Shown: positions 2,997 through 47,444 of the stretch, one piece after another
Layout of the letters: each line of letters opens with the position of its first letter
How positions within the stretch are numbered: the stretch's first letter is position 1
Origin: an uncultured Thermoplasmatales archaeon
GTDB taxonomy: Archaea; Thermoplasmatota; E2; DHVEG-1
DNA length: 64,000 nt
Reading direction: 5' to 3'
NCBI GenBank assembly: GCA_964612945.1
Contig: CAZTFR010000001.1
Span: 24,418-88,417, forward strand
Notes under the pieces: model-generated
Database searches by the model: none
What the model was told of the DNA's origin: nothing
Seen by the model: only the letters and a program-made list of their open reading frames with translations
Program-made: the position numbers and the translations under genes

Positions 2997-3560
2997 CTAC
3001 TCAGATCCATAATCTTCAATAATCCATTGAGCGGCATCGAGGAGATTTTTTGCAATATAGGTGGGTGTACTATTACTTGTTTCTAGCTCAGCTGCTCCCC
3101 GTTCGTTTTCCAATAAGATTGTTTTACATCCCACCGCTTCACCTGCTTGTACATCCATAATGCGATCACCAACCATATATGCTTTCTCTGCAGTAATATG
3201 ATGATCTGAGATGGCTTTTTTAAGAAGACCTGGTTGTGGTTTTCGACAACCACATCCCTCATCAGGATGGTGGGGGCAGAAATAGACTTGTTTCACCTTA
3301 CCTCCGGCTTCTTCCAGCTCGTGGATCATTTTTCGATGCATGTCCTCAAGCTCTTCAGGGGTGACCATTTTTCGGGCAATAACTGATTGATTCGTGATGA
3401 AAATAGTGGAAAAACCGTTTTTGGTAAGCAAACGGATTGCCTCTTTTGCATGTGGAAGAAAATGAAATTCTTCCCATGATTTAATATGATCTGGGCTGTC
3501 ACGGCTGACGGTTCCGTCACGGTCTAAAAAAACTACTTTTTCCATGGTTCTACTCTGCAT
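2997..3560 (-). CDS. gmhB: D,D-heptose 1,7-bisphosphate phosphatase (HAD-IIIA, GmhB-like)
   Basis: VFLDRDGTV HAD motif I. CPHHPDEGCGCRKPQPG zinc/His-phosphatase-like insert. GDRIMDVQAG motif. Confidence 0.7.
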   Translation of the reverse strand: MQSRTMEKVVFLDRDGTVSRDSPDHIKSWEEFHFLPHAKEAIRLLTKNGFSTIFITNQSVIARKMVTPEELEDMHRKMIHELEEAGGKVKQVYFCPHHPDEGCGCRKPQPGLLKKAISDHHITAEKAYMVGDRIMDVQAGEAVGCKTILLENERGAAELETSNSTPTYIAKNLLDAAQWIIEDYGSE

Positions 3561-4221
3561 CAGTCATTAAAAAGGCTACCATATGACCAAGAAGTGTATG
3601 CATGTCTTCACTGTGTTGCATGTTATCTATTTCAACAGTGATGCATTCATCGGCAACCTGTTTTAGTGCTCCCCCGTCAAATCCAGCAAAACCAATGGTG
3701 TAACACCCCAGCTCTTTTGCCTGTTGCATACCTTCGATAATGTTTTTTGAGTTTCCGCTTCCACTGATACCAAGAACGACATCGTTTTTGTCTGCAAGAA
3801 TGTAGAGTTGCTCTTTAAAGATCACACTGTAGTCGTCATCGTTACTATATGCAGTGATTGAGGCGATACTATCAGTGAGGGCGATGGCTTTCAGTTTTCT
3901 GAATTTTGAAAAATCGCAGATCAGATGGGAGGCAAGCGAACCGCTTCCACCATTTCCCATAAGAAATACTTTTTTTCCTTCTCTACGTGTTTTTTCAAGA
4001 ATCTGCAAGACACGTTGTATTTGATCCGTTTTCTTTTTCAGCTGTTCAATACATTGAATGGATTCATCAAGATACTGCTGAATCTGATTCGTCCTATCTG
4101 TATAGGTTGGACTAGTATCTGTTGATTTTTGTGTTGGTTGTTTTTTCTCCTCACTCTTTTGTATTATACCTTGTCTCATCCTTACCACCTTCTCATTTTT
4201 TTGTATGAGACTCGGTTCCAA
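3550..4221 (-). CDS. gmhA: phosphoheptose isomerase (SIS domain, GmhA-like)
   Basis: KVFLMGNGGSGSLASHL and LGISGSGNSKNII SIS motifs. The low-complexity N-terminal about 40 aa suggests the true start may be an internal Met. Overlaps the gmhB start (operonic). Confidence 0.7.
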   Translation of the reverse strand: MEPSLIQKNEKVVRMRQGIIQKSEEKKQPTQKSTDTSPTYTDRTNQIQQYLDESIQCIEQLKKKTDQIQRVLQILEKTRREGKKVFLMGNGGSGSLASHLICDFSKFRKLKAIALTDSIASITAYSNDDDYSVIFKEQLYILADKNDVVLGISGSGNSKNIIEGMQQAKELGCYTIGFAGFDGGALKQVADECITVEIDNMQHSEDMHTLLGHMVAFLMTDAE

Positions 4222-4346
4222 CAGGGGGAACCGATGAGGAAACTACTAGCAAGCCTACTTTTTTTTCAGCTCGTAATTTATTTTAAAGTTTATAGTTTGA
4301 TTGATTTATATATTTTTCCAAATTTCAATCTTTTTTTGATATGAAC

Positions 4347-5315
4347 TTATTCTTCCACATAAATGATACGACTGCCCTGAGGTTCAAGTCTAAAGGAGGT
4401 TTCTGTTAGATCATTGAGTGCCTTTCGAACCGGTTCTTGTTTTTGTTTTTCGATGTAGAGCAGTAAGAATCCGCCGCCACCAGCGCCTAATATTTTTCCA
4501 CCAAGCGCTCCTGCTTTTCGAGCTTTTTTATAGATAGTATCTATAGTTTTATTGGTAACCTTTCCTGTTTTCTTTTTGTATTCCCATGCAGTATGTAAAA
4601 GTTCTCCAAAACTGGAAAGATCATTGTTCCTGAGTGCTTCAGCCATCTCATGAGAGAGTTCTTTGAGTTTGTCGACTTGCCTGTATAGCACTTTCATGTT
4701 TTGTTTGCTTTCAGACAGAATCGTGCTTGCTTTACGGTTGACTCCTGTGTAGACGAGCAGGAGATTTGCGTTAAGTTGTTCGATGGTTTGTGTGTGGGCG
4801 ATGATGGGGTTGACAAAGACGGTTTCATCTGAGTTGAAACGGATAGTGTTGAGCCCCCCGTAGGCGCAGGCGTATTGATCTTGTTTACCGATGGGTTCGT
4901 GAAGGCGGCGTATTTCGATCTCGCAGGCTTCCTGGGCAAGTTTTTCTGCCCCCGCGTGTTCTCCTTTGTATGCGTGAAGCGCATTGAGAAGTCCGACGGT
5001 AAACGCGCTAGAGGATCCAAGACCGGTTCCAGAGGGAATATCGGCAATGGTGGTAATTTCTAGGCCACCATCAAGGTCGAGGAGCTGCAGTGCCTCGCGG
5101 ACGATAGGATGTTGAATTTCACCAACTTTTTCGACGATTTCAGTTTTTGAGTAGCTCACACGGATGTGGTTGTCGAATTTTTTGTTGACGGTGACATAAA
5201 TATATTTGTCAATGGAAGTGCTAATCACTGATCCGTAGGAGTGTTGATAGTAGTCTTGCAGATCAGAGACGCCTCCTGCAAAACTAATGCGAAAGGGTGT
5301 TTTTGAGATAATCAT
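4347..5315 (-). CDS. hddA: GHMP kinase, D-glycero-D-manno-heptose 7-phosphate kinase-like (HddA)
   Basis: MIISKTPFRISFAGGVSDL N-terminus. GHMP ATP-binding loop PSGTGLGSSSA. Confidence 0.7.
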   Translation of the reverse strand: MIISKTPFRISFAGGVSDLQDYYQHSYGSVISTSIDKYIYVTVNKKFDNHIRVSYSKTEIVEKVGEIQHPIVREALQLLDLDGGLEITTIADIPSGTGLGSSSAFTVGLLNALHAYKGEHAGAEKLAQEACEIEIRRLHEPIGKQDQYACAYGGLNTIRFNSDETVFVNPIIAHTQTIEQLNANLLLVYTGVNRKASTILSESKQNMKVLYRQVDKLKELSHEMAEALRNNDLSSFGELLHTAWEYKKKTGKVTNKTIDTIYKKARKAGALGGKILGAGGGGFLLLYIEKQKQEPVRKALNDLTETSFRLEPQGSRIIYVEE

Positions 5316-6250
5316 TGCTCATCCAACAAATAGCGGACGGTTCGTCGCACCGCATCTTCTAGTTTTACAGTGGTACGCCATCCCTGTTTTTTTGCTTTTT
5401 TATAGGAAAGAACCGTGATGGGAACGTCGCCTACCCAGCCGCGATCCCCCCCGGTAAATGTGTACTTCACATCAGATAGACCCATCTCATCGACAATAAT
5501 AGGGGCCAGATCTTTGACTTTAATTGATTCATCATTGGCAAGATTGTATGCTTCGACGACCACATTAAAATCCTGTTTTGGTATATTGATCAGCCCGGCA
5601 ACACAGTCGCTGACATCAAAATAGGATTTCGTCTGATTTCCATCTCCCAAAATTTCTAGCTCTCGTGGATTTTTTTGCAGTTTAGCGACAAAATCGGGAA
5701 TCACCCCATGAGTGCTCCGTCTACCAACAACATTTGCAAACCGAAACATCCAGGACTGAATACCATAGGTGTAACAATAGGAGCTGATAAATTTCTCAGC
5801 AGCAATCTTACTTGCCCCATAAAAGGAAATCGGGCGAATATCTGGGAGATCCTCTGGTGTGGGTATCACTTCAGTTTCTCCATAGAGTGCGGAACTGGAG
5901 GCAAACACCAATTTTTTTATATCATGAAGACGCATGAATTCAAGGACGGTATGCGTGCCAATCACGTTTTCTTCAAGATCCACACGGGTGTTATGGACAC
6001 CACTGCGAATGTCTGCGTTTGCGGCGAGATGAAATACCCAGTCAAATGATTCATCAGTAAAACTGGATAACTCTTTAATGTCTTTTTTTCGAAACTCAAA
6101 GTTGTCTTTTCCCTCATGGTGTTTAAGAAACTCGCTTTTACCCGTTCTAAGATTATCTATTGCGACAAGTTTCTCAGGATTTTCAGCCATCAATGTATCA
6201 ACCAGGTTACTTCCGATGAACCCGGCGCCACCGGTTATAAGATATTTCAT
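5312..6250 (-). CDS. NAD-dependent epimerase/dehydratase (extended SDR, GalE/WbpP-like)
   Basis: ITGGAGFIGSNLV Rossmann motif and YGASK catalytic YxxxK. Confidence 0.75.
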   Translation of the reverse strand: MKYLITGGAGFIGSNLVDTLMAENPEKLVAIDNLRTGKSEFLKHHEGKDNFEFRKKDIKELSSFTDESFDWVFHLAANADIRSGVHNTRVDLEENVIGTHTVLEFMRLHDIKKLVFASSSALYGETEVIPTPEDLPDIRPISFYGASKIAAEKFISSYCYTYGIQSWMFRFANVVGRRSTHGVIPDFVAKLQKNPRELEILGDGNQTKSYFDVSDCVAGLINIPKQDFNVVVEAYNLANDESIKVKDLAPIIVDEMGLSDVKYTFTGGDRGWVGDVPITVLSYKKAKKQGWRTTVKLEDAVRRTVRYLLDEQ

Positions 6251-39995: not shown

Positions 39996-40391
39996 TTGAT
40001 GGGTATGCGCCGCTTCCGAATTGATAAAGGCACTGAGCATGCGATTTATGATATGTTTAAGTCGCGAGCGGAAGCGCGGATTTATTTGTTTTTGTTACGG
40101 AAGAATGGCGCGCGTAGTGATCAAATAGTAAAGGGCACCCATCTGCATCCGAGTACGGTGCGTGAGTTGTTGGTACGTATGTATCAGCGGCGGGTGATTT
40201 CTCGCAAAAAGCTTCGCAATGATTCTATTGGGAAGAATCCGTATGTGTATCATGTAATCTCTCCCGTAGTATTGCTGCAGAAGTATGCAAGGGAGTTGGA
40301 GGCCCGTTTGAATAAGCTTGCGAATTTATCAGGTGGAGAGAGCAAACATGTGGTGAAAATCAAGATCAGCGGGGGTGATGATAACGCATGA
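39996..40391 (+). CDS. winged-helix transcriptional regulator (TrmB/MarR-like)
   Basis: 131 aa with ARIYLFLLRKNGARSDQIVKGTHLHPSTVRELLVRMYQRRVI wHTH. ATGA overlap with the downstream exporter. Confidence 0.5.
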   Translation: MMGMRRFRIDKGTEHAIYDMFKSRAEARIYLFLLRKNGARSDQIVKGTHLHPSTVRELLVRMYQRRVISRKKLRNDSIGKNPYVYHVISPVVLLQKYARELEARLNKLANLSGGESKHVVKIKISGGDDNA

Positions 40392-42625
40392 TGAGTAAAA
40401 AAATTGCCACGGTGTTGGTGCGTCATCCCAAAATGGTATTGATTGTGTTTACGTTGCTGACGTTGCTGGTTGGTTCTCAGGCTCTGAATGTGTATATGAT
40501 TTCAGATTTATCTGGGTATCTACCAGCGGATCATCCCTCGCTTCAGTTGTGGGATCAGATCAATGAAGAGTTTCAGATTGGGTCAACGATTATGATTTTT
40601 GTTGAGGCAGATGATATTCGTGATCCCTACGTGCTTATTGAGATGGATCGGGTCAGCTCAAAGGTGAATCAGTATGATTTGGATCATGGTGATCTTGATG
40701 GTGTTGTGTCGATTCGAAGTATTGCCAATCTAATAAAAAAGGAAAATGCAAAACCAAAGCTTCCCGGTGGTCTGGGTGGCTCTGGTAAATTTGAGATGCC
40801 AACAGATTCTAGCTTGATTTCTACGTATATGGCTCGCTCGCTAGTCCAGCAAACAGAGGGGTTATTGTTTATCGACAATTTTGAGGTTGCCGTTGTTATC
40901 ATTCAGTTGTCTGATGATGCTGATTATTCAGAGGTATTAAGCCGGGTCGAAGCAGCAATTGATCGCGAGGCTCGATATTCTGATATGATGGTGACAGGTC
41001 TTGCGGCGATGCAGCGTGCGATTCAAGAAGAGAGCATGCAGAGTTTGTTGATTGTCTTTCCGATTGCGATTGCGTTGATTTCTGGGGTGATTTTTTTCTT
41101 CCAACGTACGTTAAAAGGAATTATCATTGTGTTTTTACCGCTGACGTATGCGCTGACGTTGACCTTTGGGGTGATCGCGGTGGTGAATCCAGCGTTGACG
41201 TTGCTTTCAATTGCAGTTGTTGCATTATTGATTGGGCTAGGGGTGGATTATTCGATTCATATTTTGAACCGGTTTGCAGAGGAGAGTACGGTTGATGATA
41301 AGGTTAACCGGGTTTCAAAAACGTTAAAATTGACCGGGAAAGCTGTGTTGCTTTCCTCAATTACTACTATTATTGGTTTTGGTTCGTTGTTGGTCTCAAG
41401 TATGCCACCGATCATTACGTTTGGGTTTGCCTGCGTGATTGGTATCATGTTTTGTTTTATCTCTGCAACAATTGTGGTGCCTTGTTTAGCATTGGTGTTA
41501 AAGTATGAAAAGAATGGTCATACCTATGAGTGGAAACGGGTGTCAAGAATTTCGATTACAAATAAGAAACGATTTGCGTTGCTTGCAGTGTTTTTAGCTG
41601 TGATGTCGCTTGTAGTGCTCCCCCAGATCAAGACTGATGTCAGTTATCTTGAGTTGGCACCGGAGGGTATTCCTGAGGTAGAAAAATATGTGGAGTATGC
41701 TGAGATTTTTGGCGGTGGAACCAATGTCAATTTGATGTTGGTGGAAACTAATTATCAAGGTTTAACCTATCCAGAAACCATTGAAGCAATATATAAGATG
41801 GAAGCGCGGATGCGTGCCGCAGGTGCTACTGTTACCTCTGTTGCAGATGCCCTGTATGATGTCAATGAGGTTTTGAATCGAAATCAGATTATTGAAAAGA
41901 TTGCTGATATTGGTGATGCCGAAGAAATAATTTTCAATTCCATTGCTCGTGAGGGATTGGTAAATGAGGACTATTCGAAAACGGTGTTAATCATCACCTT
42001 TCCGGTAGGTTTGAGTGCAGCCCAGTTAGGGGTCCTTGTCGATGAGATGAATACGATTGCATCAGAAACCTATATTCCACATGGAGGACGAATTTCTCGA
42101 TTGACAGGGCAGGACGCAATCAACGTGGAGATTAATCAATTGTTAACGGATGAGCAGACCCGTTCGATGATTATCGCGTTGCTTTTGGTGTTGTCTATTT
42201 TAATTCTCATTTTTAATTCCAGTCTGTGGGGCTTTCTCACTATGATTCCAGTGATCTTTGTGTTAATTTGGGAGCCTGGATTTCTCGTCATCACCGATAT
42301 ACCTCTGTCTGTTCTCACCATATCTATTGCATCAATTATGATTGGTATTGGTATTGATTATGGTATTCATATCACTCAGCGTGTTCGTGAGGAAATGGAG
42401 TTAGGGCTCTCGAAGATGAAGGCAACAGAGCGGGCAATCGAAAAAACAGGATTTTCACTGGTGGAGGCTTCTGCAACAACCATTGCAGGGCTCTGTTCTG
42501 TATATTTTGTTGATATTCCGGCCTTGCAACAGTTTGGTACCATTGTAATTATTATGACCGCATCATCGCTTGCAGCTGCGATATTTGTGCTGCCTATCTT
42601 TTATAGTCCGCGGTTTGTCAAATAA
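40388..42625 (+). CDS. MMPL/RND-superfamily membrane exporter
   Basis: 745 aa with two 6-TM bundles each followed by a large loop. GLGVDYSIH and GIGIDYGIH duplicated MMPL motifs. Confidence 0.75.
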   Translation: MMSKKIATVLVRHPKMVLIVFTLLTLLVGSQALNVYMISDLSGYLPADHPSLQLWDQINEEFQIGSTIMIFVEADDIRDPYVLIEMDRVSSKVNQYDLDHGDLDGVVSIRSIANLIKKENAKPKLPGGLGGSGKFEMPTDSSLISTYMARSLVQQTEGLLFIDNFEVAVVIIQLSDDADYSEVLSRVEAAIDREARYSDMMVTGLAAMQRAIQEESMQSLLIVFPIAIALISGVIFFFQRTLKGIIIVFLPLTYALTLTFGVIAVVNPALTLLSIAVVALLIGLGVDYSIHILNRFAEESTVDDKVNRVSKTLKLTGKAVLLSSITTIIGFGSLLVSSMPPIITFGFACVIGIMFCFISATIVVPCLALVLKYEKNGHTYEWKRVSRISITNKKRFALLAVFLAVMSLVVLPQIKTDVSYLELAPEGIPEVEKYVEYAEIFGGGTNVNLMLVETNYQGLTYPETIEAIYKMEARMRAAGATVTSVADALYDVNEVLNRNQIIEKIADIGDAEEIIFNSIAREGLVNEDYSKTVLIITFPVGLSAAQLGVLVDEMNTIASETYIPHGGRISRLTGQDAINVEINQLLTDEQTRSMIIALLLVLSILILIFNSSLWGFLTMIPVIFVLIWEPGFLVITDIPLSVLTISIASIMIGIGIDYGIHITQRVREEMELGLSKMKATERAIEKTGFSLVEASATTIAGLCSVYFVDIPALQQFGTIVIIMTASSLAAAIFVLPIFYSPRFVK

Positions 42626-42891: not shown

Positions 42892-43554
42892 TTAGAGTGG
42901 TTGGATGAGGGGAGATGGAAGAATGTTTACCCCGGTGAGTAATACTGCTTGCCAGAAGAGAACGAGCAGTATTGCAGGGAAGAGTTGAATGAGCATATCA
43001 TCATCAATGAAGCGAAATTTTTTCACTTCGCCAAGCAGAGCACCTGTTGCCCCAAGCAGAGTAATGGTTGCAAGAATCAGTGGTGGTTCGGTGCTCCAGG
43101 TGATAGCAAAAAAGAAGCAGCAGAGAAGAAAACCCATCAGTAGGGCAAGAAACTGCGTGGTATGCTGTCTGAGTTCTCCCATAAGCGGATCGGCAAAGCA
43201 AGCGCAGAGAATGCATGGTATAGCAATAGGTTGGGGAAAGAAGAACAACAGTATGATCATTCCTGTACCAAAGTAGATGTAGCTTGCAGGCTGCCGGTGT
43301 TCATAGCATCTCAGACCGAAGAAATGGATGCTGTCTATTTTTTTGGTAATGCGAAGATATTCAAGGAGAAGCACGAGCAGAAAGAAAGCGGCGGGAATAC
43401 TAATTCGAAGAGTGGCATCCGGCAGTTTATAATAAATGAGAAACGAGGCAGCAAAACTATGAAAGATACGTCGAAACCAGACTGCATCGATAGTAAGATG
43501 CTGAGATGGTGCAAATGCAGTGATCATAGTAGTATAAGCAAACAGAGTAACCAT
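42892..43554 (-). CDS. polytopic membrane protein, possibly CTP-dependent polyprenol/dolichol kinase-like (weak)
   Basis: 220 aa with 6-7 TM helices. CFADPLMGELRQ loosely resembles the CdsA/dolichol-kinase GDxxAxxxG region. Confidence 0.25.
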   Translation of the reverse strand: MVTLFAYTTMITAFAPSQHLTIDAVWFRRIFHSFAASFLIYYKLPDATLRISIPAAFFLLVLLLEYLRITKKIDSIHFFGLRCYEHRQPASYIYFGTGMIILLFFFPQPIAIPCILCACFADPLMGELRQHTTQFLALLMGFLLCCFFFAITWSTEPPLILATITLLGATGALLGEVKKFRFIDDDMLIQLFPAILLVLFWQAVLLTGVNILPSPLIQPL

Positions 43555-43614
43555 GTTTAAAAGATTTGCATATTTTTCAGGCTGGTTAAACTCTTGTAGT
43601 AGAGGTATGATGTC

Positions 43615-44055
43615 GTGTTTGTGCCCGATGAGGATCTTGCCGAGCAGGTAAAGGAGTTAAACAGCCGTATTATGGAGTTGGAACGGATGCTTTCGGCAAT
43701 GATAGGTCCGTTTCAAAAGGTGCAGAATGTAACAGGAAATTATTTCCGATTAATTCAGCTGTTACTGGAGCATGGCGGCCTTACCCCTGATGTGCTAACA
43801 CCTGATGTAAAAGATCCTATTGCACGAGATATCGTCCGGGTACTGATGGATCGCACTGATCAAAACATTTCAGAAATCACCGAGTTGGTGCGGAGTCGTC
43901 GGGGAACAGCGTCTCGTCGGATTATCCGAAAAAAGCTTGGTACGTTGGAAGAAAAAAAATTAGTTGAAAAAAAACAAAAAGCATCACGGTATGTATATCG
44001 ATTATCTGAAGAAATGTTAAAGAAATGGTCCAAATTACTTGGGTTGAAGATATAA
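43615..44055 (+). CDS. winged-helix transcriptional regulator-like protein
   Basis: IARDIVRVLMDRTDQNISEITELVRSRRGTASRRIIRKKLGTLEEKKLVEKK helix-turn-helix-wing pattern. Confidence 0.45.
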   Translation: MFVPDEDLAEQVKELNSRIMELERMLSAMIGPFQKVQNVTGNYFRLIQLLLEHGGLTPDVLTPDVKDPIARDIVRVLMDRTDQNISEITELVRSRRGTASRRIIRKKLGTLEEKKLVEKKQKASRYVYRLSEEMLKKWSKLLGLKI

Positions 44056-44088
44056 AGATGATAAAAAAAAGCTGGAGGTTGAAATAAG

Positions 44089-44361
44089 ATGAATAAACAT
44101 GAAGAAATGCCCGATCCGGAGAAAATTAAGGAGATCTTAAATGTGGTATCTGAAAAAATACCGGGGTTGTTAAAACAACTTAGTGAAGTCATTTATGGTG
44201 CGGAGCAATCCAAACAGTATGGACTTGCGGTGGCCACGTTTTACAAAGAGCTGAAGGCTGCAGGGATGACAGATGCACAGGCCTTTGAGTTAACCCGGCA
44301 GTATCTATCTACGTTAAATGTCGGACAGATGGTGAAAGGATTTCGGCATGAGAAAGAGTAA
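44089..44361 (+). CDS. small helical protein, paralog A of a tandem pair
   Basis: 90 aa. Shares the pattern IPGLL..LS.......K........F...L.A.G..D..A.ELT..YL with the next ORF. Confidence 0.4.
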   Translation: MNKHEEMPDPEKIKEILNVVSEKIPGLLKQLSEVIYGAEQSKQYGLAVATFYKELKAAGMTDAQAFELTRQYLSTLNVGQMVKGFRHEKE

Positions 44362-44375
44362 GCTGGGGCTGATGT

Positions 44376-44633
44376 GTGGTGAGTGTCTCCTCTGATTCCG
44401 ATTCCTCCTCGCAGGGTTTTCAAATGATGAAGGTGCTCCTGCCTCATCTTCCTGGTCTTTTACTTCGGATGAGTGGAACCTTGTTACGGTTTAAGCGAGA
44501 TGCAAAAAAGGCAGGGCGTCTTTTTCAGCAAACATTGAGAGCGGAAGGTTTGGATGAAAAAACTGCAGAGGAGTTAACTTCGGTGTATCTTGAAAATAGC
44601 AATATTTTTCGATTTTTTGAATTTTTCAAATAA
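44376..44633 (+). CDS. small helical protein, paralog B of a tandem pair
   Basis: 85 aa. LPGLLLRMS...AEGLDEKTAEELTSVYL aligns with paralog A. Confidence 0.4.
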   Translation: MVSVSSDSDSSSQGFQMMKVLLPHLPGLLLRMSGTLLRFKRDAKKAGRLFQQTLRAEGLDEKTAEELTSVYLENSNIFRFFEFFK

Positions 44634-44649: not shown

Positions 44650-45351
44650 TTAGATTACTTTCTCCTGGAGGGTAACAATTCCCTGTTTACTTCCAACAAT
44701 GACTTCATCAACAAGATCGATAAAGAGTCCGTTTTCTACAACGCCCGGGATGAGGTTGAGTGTTTGTTCGAGGATGTCAGGTTCTTTGATTTTTCCAAAG
44801 TCACAGTCGAGTATGTAGTTTGCATTATCGGTAATGTAGACTTCTCCTACGATTTTTCGCAGTTCAGCAGTGCACCCGAGTTCTTCAATTGATTTTTTTG
44901 TGGCCGGCCAGGCATATTTGACGACTTCTACAGGTATTGGTGTATCAATGCCGAGTGCTTTTACTACTTTGGATTCATCGGCGATGATGATTACTTTTTC
45001 AGAGTGATACGCAACGATTTTTTCTCGTGTCAGTGCACCTCCTCCCCCTTTAATGACATTAAGATAGGAGTCCACTTCATCAGCGCCGTCGATTGTGACA
45101 TCAATTTCGGTGAACTCATTGAACTCGGTGAGTGGTATATTGTATTTTTTGGCTACTTTTTTTGTTTTCACTGAGGTAGGCACTCCTTCGATTTTCAGCC
45201 CGTCTTTGACCAGTTCTCCGAGTTTTTTGAGCATAAATTGAGCAGTTGATCCGGTACCAAGACCGATGGTCATATTGTCTTCAATAAATTCTAGTGCTTT
45301 TTCTGCGGCTTGTTTTTTCATATCATCTTGATCCACGAGGTCACCGTACAC
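44650..45351 (-). CDS. rpiA: ribose-5-phosphate isomerase A
   Basis: IGLGTGSTAQF, DGADEVD, KGGGGALTREK and PGVVENGLF motifs. Confidence 0.85.
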   Translation of the reverse strand: MYGDLVDQDDMKKQAAEKALEFIEDNMTIGLGTGSTAQFMLKKLGELVKDGLKIEGVPTSVKTKKVAKKYNIPLTEFNEFTEIDVTIDGADEVDSYLNVIKGGGGALTREKIVAYHSEKVIIIADESKVVKALGIDTPIPVEVVKYAWPATKKSIEELGCTAELRKIVGEVYITDNANYILDCDFGKIKEPDILEQTLNLIPGVVENGLFIDLVDEVIVGSKQGIVTLQEKVI

Positions 45352-45416
45352 AGGTATACAAAATCCTATACAAAAACCTTATACTTGGGAGGGACTTTAC
45401 AGGGGGCTTGAGAGTT

Positions 45417-46082
45417 ATGCTTGCCGAATGCAATGAACATGGATATTTCAGAGGTGATGTCTGTCCTATTTGTGGGCAGAAAGGAAAATTCTTGATGAAT
45501 GATCGAGAGCTTGACTCGCTTGGTCGTATTATGGCGGGTGTGCTGCGGCATTTCCCAGAAAAATTGGGTGTCATGATTGATGGTCATGGCTGGGTAGATA
45601 TCTCTGAGTTTGTGGAAAAAATCGGGGGGAGTCGATCTGGTTTTAATTGGCTGCGTGATCATCACGTTGAGGCTATTGCGCTGTCTGATCCAAAGGGGCG
45701 ATATCAGATTGATGGGGGTATGATTCGGGCGACCTATGGTCATACCATTGATATTAATCTTGATGACTTGCCGGACGCAGAGCTTGATGAATATTTTTAT
45801 CCGGTGACTGAGGAAGAAATTGATATTATTTTAGAAAATGGGTTGAATCCGATTGATCGGAAGCATGTGCATTTGAGTGGTAATATTGAAAAAGCCTTGG
45901 AGGCAGGTCATGTCCGCACCGAGGATCCGTTGATTCTGCGTATTGATGGTAAAAAAGCAATACAGGATGGTGTGCAGATATATGAAGCGGGTAGAGCGGT
46001 GTATATCACAGACCGTGTGGATGCGAAGTATCTTTCCAAAGTTGATGAAAAAGAGGTAAAAAAGGCCTTGGAAAAAGATTAA
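45417..46082 (+). CDS. kptA: RNA 2'-phosphotransferase (KptA/Tpt1) with N-terminal CxxC zinc-ribbon
   Basis: LSDPKGRYQIDGGMIRATYGHTIDI and RKHVHLSGN catalytic R/H motifs. N-terminal CNEHG...CPICG. Start taken at Met 45417 to avoid overlap with rpiA. Confidence 0.75.
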   Translation: MLAECNEHGYFRGDVCPICGQKGKFLMNDRELDSLGRIMAGVLRHFPEKLGVMIDGHGWVDISEFVEKIGGSRSGFNWLRDHHVEAIALSDPKGRYQIDGGMIRATYGHTIDINLDDLPDAELDEYFYPVTEEEIDIILENGLNPIDRKHVHLSGNIEKALEAGHVRTEDPLILRIDGKKAIQDGVQIYEAGRAVYITDRVDAKYLSKVDEKEVKKALEKD

Positions 46083-46137
46083 TACTCTCTTTTTTTTCCC
46101 ATTGCTCACAGTGCATTTGAGAGGTTGTCTTTTTATG

Positions 46138-46211
46138 GGCTTGTAGCTCAGCTAGGTAGAGCAATCGGCTCTTAACCGATTGGCCTGGGGTTCGAATCCC
46201 CACAAGCCCGC
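46138..46211 (+). tRNA. tRNA-Lys (anticodon CUU)
   Basis: Hand-folded cloverleaf. Acceptor GGGCTTG/CAAGCCC. D-arm GCTC-AGCTAGGTA-GAGC. Anticodon stem ATCGG/CCGAT with loop CTCTTAA. T-arm TGGGG-TTCGAAT-CCCCA. Discriminator G. No encoded CCA. Confidence 0.85.
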
Positions 46212-47099: not shown

Positions 47100-47444
47100 T
47101 TGTGTTTTTTGGTGGTGAACGTTATTCGCAAGAAATGCCCCGAATGTGGTGGTAAAGCAGTGCGCTTGTATCAAAATAAGACAGTGGATGGCAAACGTAA
47201 ATGGGTGCCAATTGCGTGGACGTGTACTAAGTGTAGCTATACGTATACTGTTGCCGGTGATACCCTGTTATATCCCGTAGGTGGTGAGCAATATAAAGAG
47301 GAATACGGTGGTCACTGTCCGAAATGTGATCTTAGACTTATCAGAGTGTTTCGTCATAAAAACCCGGTGCATGGCAAGCAGGAATGGATTTCATCTGCGT
47401 ATTATTGTAGTCGCTGTAAGTATGTGTGGTTGGATAAAAAGTAG
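47100..47444 (+). CDS. tandem double zinc-ribbon protein
   Basis: Two internally repeated modules. CPECGGKAVRLYQNKTVDGKRKWVPIAWTCTKCSYTY and CPKCDLRLIRVFRHKNPVHGKQEWISSAYYCSRCKYVW. Confidence 0.4.
   Translation: MCFLVVNVIRKKCPECGGKAVRLYQNKTVDGKRKWVPIAWTCTKCSYTYTVAGDTLLYPVGGEQYKEEYGGHCPKCDLRLIRVFRHKNPVHGKQEWISSAYYCSRCKYVWLDKK

Follow-up and report, generated by a model that had tools for sequence, protein, structure and literature searches.

Which function might two small, mutually related proteins have when their genes directly follow that of a winged-helix protein in an uncultured Thermoplasmatales archaeon, and when neither of them can be placed in a known family? The question is raised by a three-gene locus within a 64,000-nucleotide stretch of archaeal DNA, hereafter the window, and an earlier reading made from the sequence alone (the sequence-only reading) had offered two answers for the small proteins, a structural pair or an uncharacterised regulatory module. 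We here call the winged-helix gene and its product R and the two small ones A and B. R-A-B is an uncharacterised, widely conserved module with a protein family that is missing from current family databases, and it is of a known kind in that a transcription factor comes with dedicated small partner proteins, while its counterpart in bacterial ECF sigma operons was unexpected.

Organization of the locus

The three genes lie on the plus strand between two minus-strand genes, and the features referred to below are as follows (wHTH, winged helix-turn-helix).

42892-43554, minus strand: membrane-protein gene flanking R-A-B, divergent
43550-43614, plus strand: putative R-A-B promoter region, with TATA-like TTTAAAAG at 43556-43563 and a degenerate box copy GTTAAACTCTTGTAG at 43585-43599
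43615-44055, plus strand: R, 146 aa, GTG start, wHTH DNA-binding protein
44074-44079, plus strand: Shine-Dalgarno-like GGAGGT, 9 nt 5' of the ATG of A, a direct sequence reading
44089-44361, plus strand: A, 90 aa, ATG start, soluble acidic four-helix protein
44376-44633, plus strand: B, 85 aa, GTG start, basic paralog of A
44650-45351, minus strand: rpiA flanking R-A-B, convergent

The co-directional reading frames of 90 and 85 codons that the sequence-only reading had given for A and B were recovered with the same coordinates and lengths, although the gap between them is 14 nt and not 15 nt as stated there; R and A are separated by 33 nt. Alignment with homologs places the start of B at GTG 44376 rather than at the internal ATG 44424. 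No RNA genes were found in the R-A-B region by Rfam and tRNA scans, and the sole RNA gene that Rfam and ARAGORN detect in the 64-kb window is a tRNA-Lys (CTT) at 46137-46211. The genes that flank the trio in the window are housekeeping genes, namely rpiA, an RNA 2'-phosphotransferase gene and an MMPL transporter gene. An origin of R-A-B in defence, TA or phage systems was considered and rejected, the PADLOC and PHROGs searches being negative; in PADLOC R showed merely generic wHTH similarity to Csa3 (E 6e-6) and A and B were matchless.

Some observations on the surroundings may be recorded here. The mechanical reading frame of the RNA 2'-phosphotransferase KptA/Tpt1 (45294-46082) starts at GTG 45294 and thereby overlaps the 5' end of rpiA on the opposite strand, but as the family match sets in at residue 42 only and a relative's called gene is 220 aa long, the true start is probably the ATG near 45414 (MLAECNEHGY...). 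At 39996-42625 lie a TrmB/TFIIE-alpha-like wHTH gene (131 aa) and a gene for a 745-aa MMPL/RND-type transporter, whose start the former overlaps by 4 nt. This pair is also kept in the relatives L001 and L009 and has the appearance of another regulator-plus-cargo unit, separate from R-A-B and located shortly before it. The 114-aa reading frame at 47100-47444 encodes two internal CxxC...CxxC zinc-ribbon repeats (KCPECGG...CTKCSY and HCPKCDL...CSRCKY) and has homologs in a few of the related loci, e.g. L031:4240-4551. Finally, about 25 co-directional plus-strand reading frames of at least 250 aa, many of them with overlaps of a few bases, occupy positions 7411-36363 and may constitute a large biosynthetic cluster, for instance for a surface glycan; GC and AT skew show strong excursions at 8-10 kb and, slightly beyond this run, at 38-40 kb.

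A and B form a paralogous family

That A and B are paralogs had been proposed from common motifs, and these are indeed present (IPGLLKQLS and FYKELKAAGMTDAQAFELTRQYL of A correspond to LPGLLLRMS and FQQTLRAEGLDEKTAEELTSVYL of B). A direct BLASTP comparison of the two proteins is marginal, with 12/36 identities at E 3e-4 in the C-terminal part only. Members of both families were taken from 86 related loci, and when the profiles of 79 A-type and 79 B-type sequences were compared with hhalign, they aligned with a probability of 96.9% and an E-value of 1.3e-10 over 75 columns, i.e. nearly the full length. Furthermore, an HMM built from four B sequences matches every A protein at 1e-5 to 1e-9, the A and B HMMs match each other reciprocally, and a single BLAST cluster contains both proteins. 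Judged by these profile alignments, cross-matches and the joint cluster, A and B are true, old paralogs. The doubt whether such small reading frames are real genes is answered by 522 database homologs of A and 470 of R, and by the presence of a B-type reading frame after A in nearly all of the related loci, a word-based search with B itself returning 2 matches only. In syntenic relatives identity to the window protein is 64-79% for A, 58-64% for R and 36-55% for B, the comparison genes of the same relatives having 61-72% (RpiA) and 77-82% (RNA 2'-phosphotransferase); B evolves much faster than A.

The description of A and B as small helical proteins held up as well, and the structure predictions, which covered monomers, concern the individual chains. 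A, with the family consensus MPDPEKIKEILDVVSEKIPGLLKELS...LYG...AK...A.FYKELK.AGMTDEQAFELTRQYMSTLNLG, is amphipathic and acidic with a median net charge of -3, and B is basic with a median net charge of +7. In B the hydrophobic segment MMKVLLPHLPGLLLRMSGTLLRF replaces the amphipathic N-terminal helix-Pro-helix of A, and it is followed by a K/R cluster and then by the common helix-G-hydrophobic-helix hairpin. The conserved core of the family, [FY]..L...G[MLI][TSPD]...A..[LM]T..Y, is such a helix-Gly-hydrophobic-cap-helix hairpin. On the simple hydropathy scale by which alone the segment was judged (KD19), the maximum for the window's B is 1.02, and the median is 1.42 among the B proteins of Thermoplasmatota (16/79 above 1.6) and 2.13 among bacterial B proteins (32/42 above 1.6), in which the segment is followed by RRRR. 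The N-terminus of B would accordingly appear to be a true membrane anchor in the bacterial members and borderline in the window, and anchoring of the window's B is uncertain, since its hydrophobic segment is weak.

Neither protein has a significant match among Pfam, NCBIfam, PADLOC and PHROGs models or PDB sequences, which agrees with the failure of the sequence-only reading to assign a family. No PspA/IM30 domain (PF04012) or ESCRT-III-like fold was found in A or B, there is no homology to described anti-sigma or anti-anti-sigma domains, and none of the best 150 family representatives is fused to a DNA-binding or anti-sigma domain. The core hairpin does resemble those of HeH/SAP/UBA-like proteins and designed 'G-M-P-x-E' helix-loop-helix units, and it weakly matches 8gaa, a designed helical repeat protein (E 0.33), and the N-terminus of LH1-beta (E 0.02), but these matches are short and insignificant, generic helix-capping sequence accounts for them best, and no DNA-, RNA- or ubiquitin-binding function can be transferred to A or B. 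Two candidate identities of A were discarded: the likeness to light-harvesting LH1 beta chains (E 0.02-0.05 via GLTDEQAQELHSVYMSGL) comprises a helix-cap motif of about 30 residues in an unrelated membrane peptide and was taken as chance, and the notion of a phasin or lipid-droplet protein stems from a weak match to rubber elongation factor (E 0.13) that is unsupported in relatives. No literature on the family was found among the searchable papers, and reports outside these may exist. An archaeal dark matter review does not list the R-A-B trio. From the Phr neighbourhood of P. furiosus, PF1787 is an acyl-CoA synthetase, no mention of PF1788 or PF1789 was found in the literature, and the P. furiosus heat-shock study does not discuss such genes. 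A and B would represent a new protein family, which comprises several hundred clusters at 50% identity.

Some bacterial A homologs (P0307, P0310, P0366, P0382, P0344, P0361 and P0375; L087 and L092) are extended at the N-terminus by an E/R-rich coiled coil (ERERLERE...), and in some of them this extension also includes 2-3 additional units of the C-terminal hairpin, the hairpin being repeated three times in certain bacterial members; it therefore behaves as an independent repeat module. The 1903-aa protein P0275, a giant secreted repeat protein with 17 copies of a unit of about 100 aa, matches the A profile at E 3e-20 solely via NNNPEKVKEIIEQVAK, which resembles the N-terminal PEKIKEIL helix of A; this match is probably spurious and repeat-amplified, and we do not regard P0275 as a member of the family.

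R is a winged-helix protein devoid of a recognisable sensor

The gene upstream of A and B, described earlier as winged-helix regulator-like, does encode a winged-helix DNA-binding protein, and a long helix is its only other feature. This helix spans residues 5-52 at the N-terminus and is followed by an invariant HGG(L/I)(T/S)P turn and by the C-terminal wHTH (residues 68-141) with the invariant recognition-helix motif RGTASRRI; no ligand-binding or sensor domain is recognisable in R. The best family match is the ArsR/SmtB model NF033788 (24.3 bits, E 2e-5), which falls short of the cutoff of 55, there is no match to Pfam HTH_5 or HTH_20, and Penicillinase_R (PF03965; BlaI/MecI/CopY) scores 17.2 bits (E 0.0067), below the gathering score of 22.6. 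Searched against the PDB, the R profile finds BlaI (1p6r) at E 0.38, and no solved structure matches R over its full length (TM at most 0.48). In relation to the ArsR/SmtB, MarR, Fur-DBD, BlaI/MecI and Phr repressors, R has the wHTH fold that characterizes ArsR/SmtB proteins, but all of its family scores lie below the cutoffs, a single long N-terminal helix replaces the dimerisation and sensor modules, and conserved metal or redox ligands are missing. A candidate third copy of the A/B hairpin in the N-terminal half of R (...NYFRLIQLLLEHGGLTPD...) was rejected, as hhalign of the N-terminal part, the C-terminal part and full-length R against the A and B profiles gave at most 1.2%.

Fur, Nur, CzrA, SmtB and ArsR are among the structural neighbours of R, and together with the NF033788 match they raise the idea that R-A-B is a metal-homeostasis module, in which R would be a metalloregulator of the ArsR/SmtB or Fur type and A, together with B, would act as a small His-rich metal binder or buffer. 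Many A homologs do have His-rich N- or C-terminal tails such as HHKHEHYED, GHGHEH and HGHHGYDHHD. We nonetheless consider this very unlikely, since the NF033788 score is far under its cutoff, since the likeness of R to metalloregulators is limited to the generic wHTH, and since no Cys or His is found among the listed invariant and nearly invariant columns of R in the 120-sequence alignment A3; the metal-sensing site of ArsR/SmtB proteins (Cys/His/Asp, in alpha3N or alpha5) was accordingly not found. In addition, the His tails of A shift in position, acidic or Gly-rich tails often take their place, and the A protein of the window has two histidines only, H4 and H87.

Promoters and R-less copies of A-B

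About 70 of the related loci have a CAAAAGTTCTTTTTA consensus box (BRE/TATA-like) some 22-30 nt 5' of the conserved GTG with which R homologs almost always start (L001-L084, e.g. L047, L051 and L059), and this spacing suggests that the transcript of R is leaderless and translated from the GTG. The copy of the box in the window is degenerate and matches at 7/15 positions, and the promoter given for the window is therefore putative and poorly defined. No conserved palindromic operator was found 5' of R by k-mer enrichment, the BRE/TATA-like box alone being recovered.

Four MAGs that carry the full or partial trio elsewhere have a second copy of A-B that lacks R. Upstream of A these copies have the strong and highly conserved palindrome GTGACCA-N5/6-TGGTCAC, a TATA-like box, a third TGACCA half-site and GGAGG, followed by the start codon of A, and the palindrome region is located as follows.

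L033:3880-3898: GTGACCA palindrome region, 5' of A in an R-less A-B copy
L050:3879-3897: the same
L064:3847-3865: the same
L067:3905-3923: the same

The GTGACC palindrome is restricted to the R-less copies and is missing from all R-linked promoters as well as from the window. The possession of a palindrome and a TATA box of their own would imply that expression of A-B is itself a controlled output.

Conservation of the trio in archaea

By the names of its closest database homologs the window belongs to uncultured Thermoplasmatota that are related to the 'MBG-D' single-cell genomes SCGC AB-540-F20 and AB-539-C06. The 86 related loci comprise those of 80 species-representative genomes with an A homolog, all of them Thermoplasmatota by record title, and six metagenome loci. 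The complete trio is present in 73 of the 86, most of the exceptions being contig ends, and besides these three no gene family is common to more than 13 of the loci. The flanks vary by lineage and consist of rpiA and kptA, as in the window, of folate genes, or of secE-nusG-L11. Since the trio is constant while its flanks differ between lineages, R-A-B is an autonomous cassette. The order R-A-B was furthermore confirmed by HMM in a Thermococci (Palaeococcus-like) locus, in L174 and in three further archaeal metagenome loci, the latter carrying archaeal markers such as TopoVI or PolB. In these further trios R scores at E 1e-18 to 1e-46 and B at 1e-8 to 1e-15, and in L088, L090 and L096 the end of A overlaps the start of B by 1-4 nt. 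The three-gene arrangement, whose occurrence in other genomes the sequence-only reading had suggested checking, is thus found well beyond the window.

In the Thermococci/Palaeococcus-like metagenome contig L088 the trio (3537-5515) lies directly 5' of, and co-directional with, an ortholog of Phr (PDB 2p4w, E 1e-75), the regulator of the heat-shock response in Pyrococcus, with a gap of 29 nt after B. This arrangement was seen in one lineage only, and it hints at a stress theme under either of the two main readings discussed below.

A-B in bacterial ECF sigma operons

In all three bacterial loci that were reached through single A homologs, ECF sigma and zf-HC2 anti-sigma genes directly precede A, with an overlap of 8-14 nt between the anti-sigma gene and A. 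When metagenome contigs were scanned with a 7-sequence alignment of the bacterial A subfamily, 80 loci were retrieved, and among the 52 whose upstream sequence extends over about 1.1 kb or more, 49 show the ECF sigma and zf-HC2 anti-sigma genes immediately 5' of A. A B-like reading frame follows immediately 3' of A in at least 42 of the 73 bacterial loci having at least 320 nt downstream; its layout is an N-terminal transmembrane helix, RRRR and the family hairpin F..RL.R.GL....A..L...Y, and 34 of these frames are also matched by the archaeal A/B HMMs. Given that the neighbour is R in archaea and an ECF sigma factor with its zf-HC2 anti-sigma factor in bacteria, the A-B pair is the core that is conserved in both domains, where it adjoins unrelated transcription factors.

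In the bacterial ECF sigma/zf-HC2 (class I) anti-sigma modules the homologs of A and B are accordingly the third and fourth genes of the operon, and the logic common to these modules and to R-A-B is that a transcription factor is encoded together with small partners, one of which would be membrane-anchored. The two differ in that the window is archaeal, has no sigma or anti-sigma gene beside A-B, and has an unrelated wHTH gene in that position. The anti-sigma factors of the bacterial operons, of about 125 aa, are unusual as well: anti-sigma factors usually have a transmembrane or sensor part, whereas those linked to A-B are devoid of either, a transmembrane segment being rare among them (1/65 above KD19 1.6).

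The bacterial context also bears on the proposal that R is a structural DNA-binding protein, acting in the nucleoid, in segregation or as a membrane-DNA tether, with A-B as its structural adaptors. R does have a coiled-coil-like helix in addition to its wHTH, its homologs go by the name 'DivIVA' in some sources, one of its Foldseek neighbours is the plasmid centromere-binding protein 4rs8, and an operator 5' of R was not found. However, the factors in the bacterial counterpart are bona fide gene-specific ECF sigma and anti-sigma factors, no ParA- or SMC-type partner is linked to the trio, and the name 'DivIVA' is most likely due to nothing more than coiled-coil composition, all of which makes a structural role of this kind most improbable.

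Possible functions of the A-B pair

Since the bacterial A-B pair follows genes for an ECF sigma factor and its anti-sigma factor, the evidence leans towards transcription-factor control, and of the two answers offered at the outset the regulatory module is thereby favoured, although an effector pair would also fit. In our preferred reading, to which we assign a probability of roughly 0.4, A and B act as protein partners of the neighbouring transcription factor and control it, R-A-B then being a self-contained transcription-control cassette. A and B would form a heteromeric complex at the membrane or its periphery, and this complex would bind R in archaea, probably via the long N-terminal helix of R, and the sensor-less anti-sigma factor in bacteria. 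On a membrane, envelope or proteotoxic signal it would hold or release the factor, and R, once switched, would control its own operon and possibly other genes.

Several features are consistent with control by partner proteins, notably that A-B is linked to unrelated types of transcription factor in two domains, that the genes abut or overlap, that A (-3) and B (+7) are oppositely charged, and that bacterial B has an apparent membrane anchor. In addition, R and the bacterial anti-sigma factors are without a sensor and must therefore receive their input from elsewhere, possibly from A-B. It should also be mentioned that gene overlap is common in compact operons irrespective of function, that the window's B is weakly hydrophobic, that fusions of A or B to DNA-binding or anti-sigma domains are absent among the best 150 representatives, and that the search 5' of R yielded no operator for this protein, all of which speak against partner control. 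So do the R-less A-B copies, which with their own operator and TATA box resemble the output of a regulator.

Indeed these copies, whose palindrome promoter suggests an output controlled by another factor, are an argument for regarding A-B as a regulated stress effector pair, in which B at the membrane would bring in soluble A for the protection or remodelling of the membrane or the proteome and in which R or the ECF sigma factor merely induces both. Such a role is furthermore in agreement with the conservation of A, which equals that of housekeeping enzymes such as RpiA, with the Palaeococcus-like trio lying 29 nt upstream of Phr in the same direction, and with the fact that ECF sigma operons often include stress effectors. 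A similar architecture is known from LiaI-LiaH and PspB/C-PspA, where a membrane-anchored small protein and a soluble helical partner are co-expressed under a dedicated envelope-stress regulator; this is however a likeness by analogy, as there is no similarity in sequence or fold and as A and B are mutual paralogs, which the Lia and Psp partners are not. A and B likewise lack similarity to PspA, LiaH or other known stress effectors. Moreover, an effector role leaves the signal input unexplained, since R and the anti-sigma factors have no sensor domains, and the tight linkage to transcription factors in both domains is equally expected for co-regulators as for cargo. We regard the effector pair as possible, at odds below even, and slightly prefer the reading in which A and B are partners of the transcription factor.

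Carried one step further, partner control would make A-B an ancient signal-transducing module of Archaea and Bacteria, in which a soluble protein and its membrane-anchored paralog control unrelated transcription factors by sequestration and release. In this general form we consider the proposal rather unlikely, but if true it would describe a class of transcription-factor control that had gone unrecognised, and archaea would have their first counterpart of an anti-sigma-type circuit to share actual components with a bacterial one.

Archaeal transcription factors have mostly been studied as stand-alone, ligand-sensing repressors, and to our knowledge hardly any archaeal circuit has been described in which a factor is governed by small partner proteins in the manner of bacterial anti-sigma factors. 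R-A-B and its bacterial counterpart provide a concrete and testable candidate for a partner-controlled circuit in archaea, and the bacterial pair may be an input device for one group of ECF sigma factors. For the uncultured sediment Thermoplasmatota, the trio would offer a first functional handle on their conserved 'dark matter' genes.
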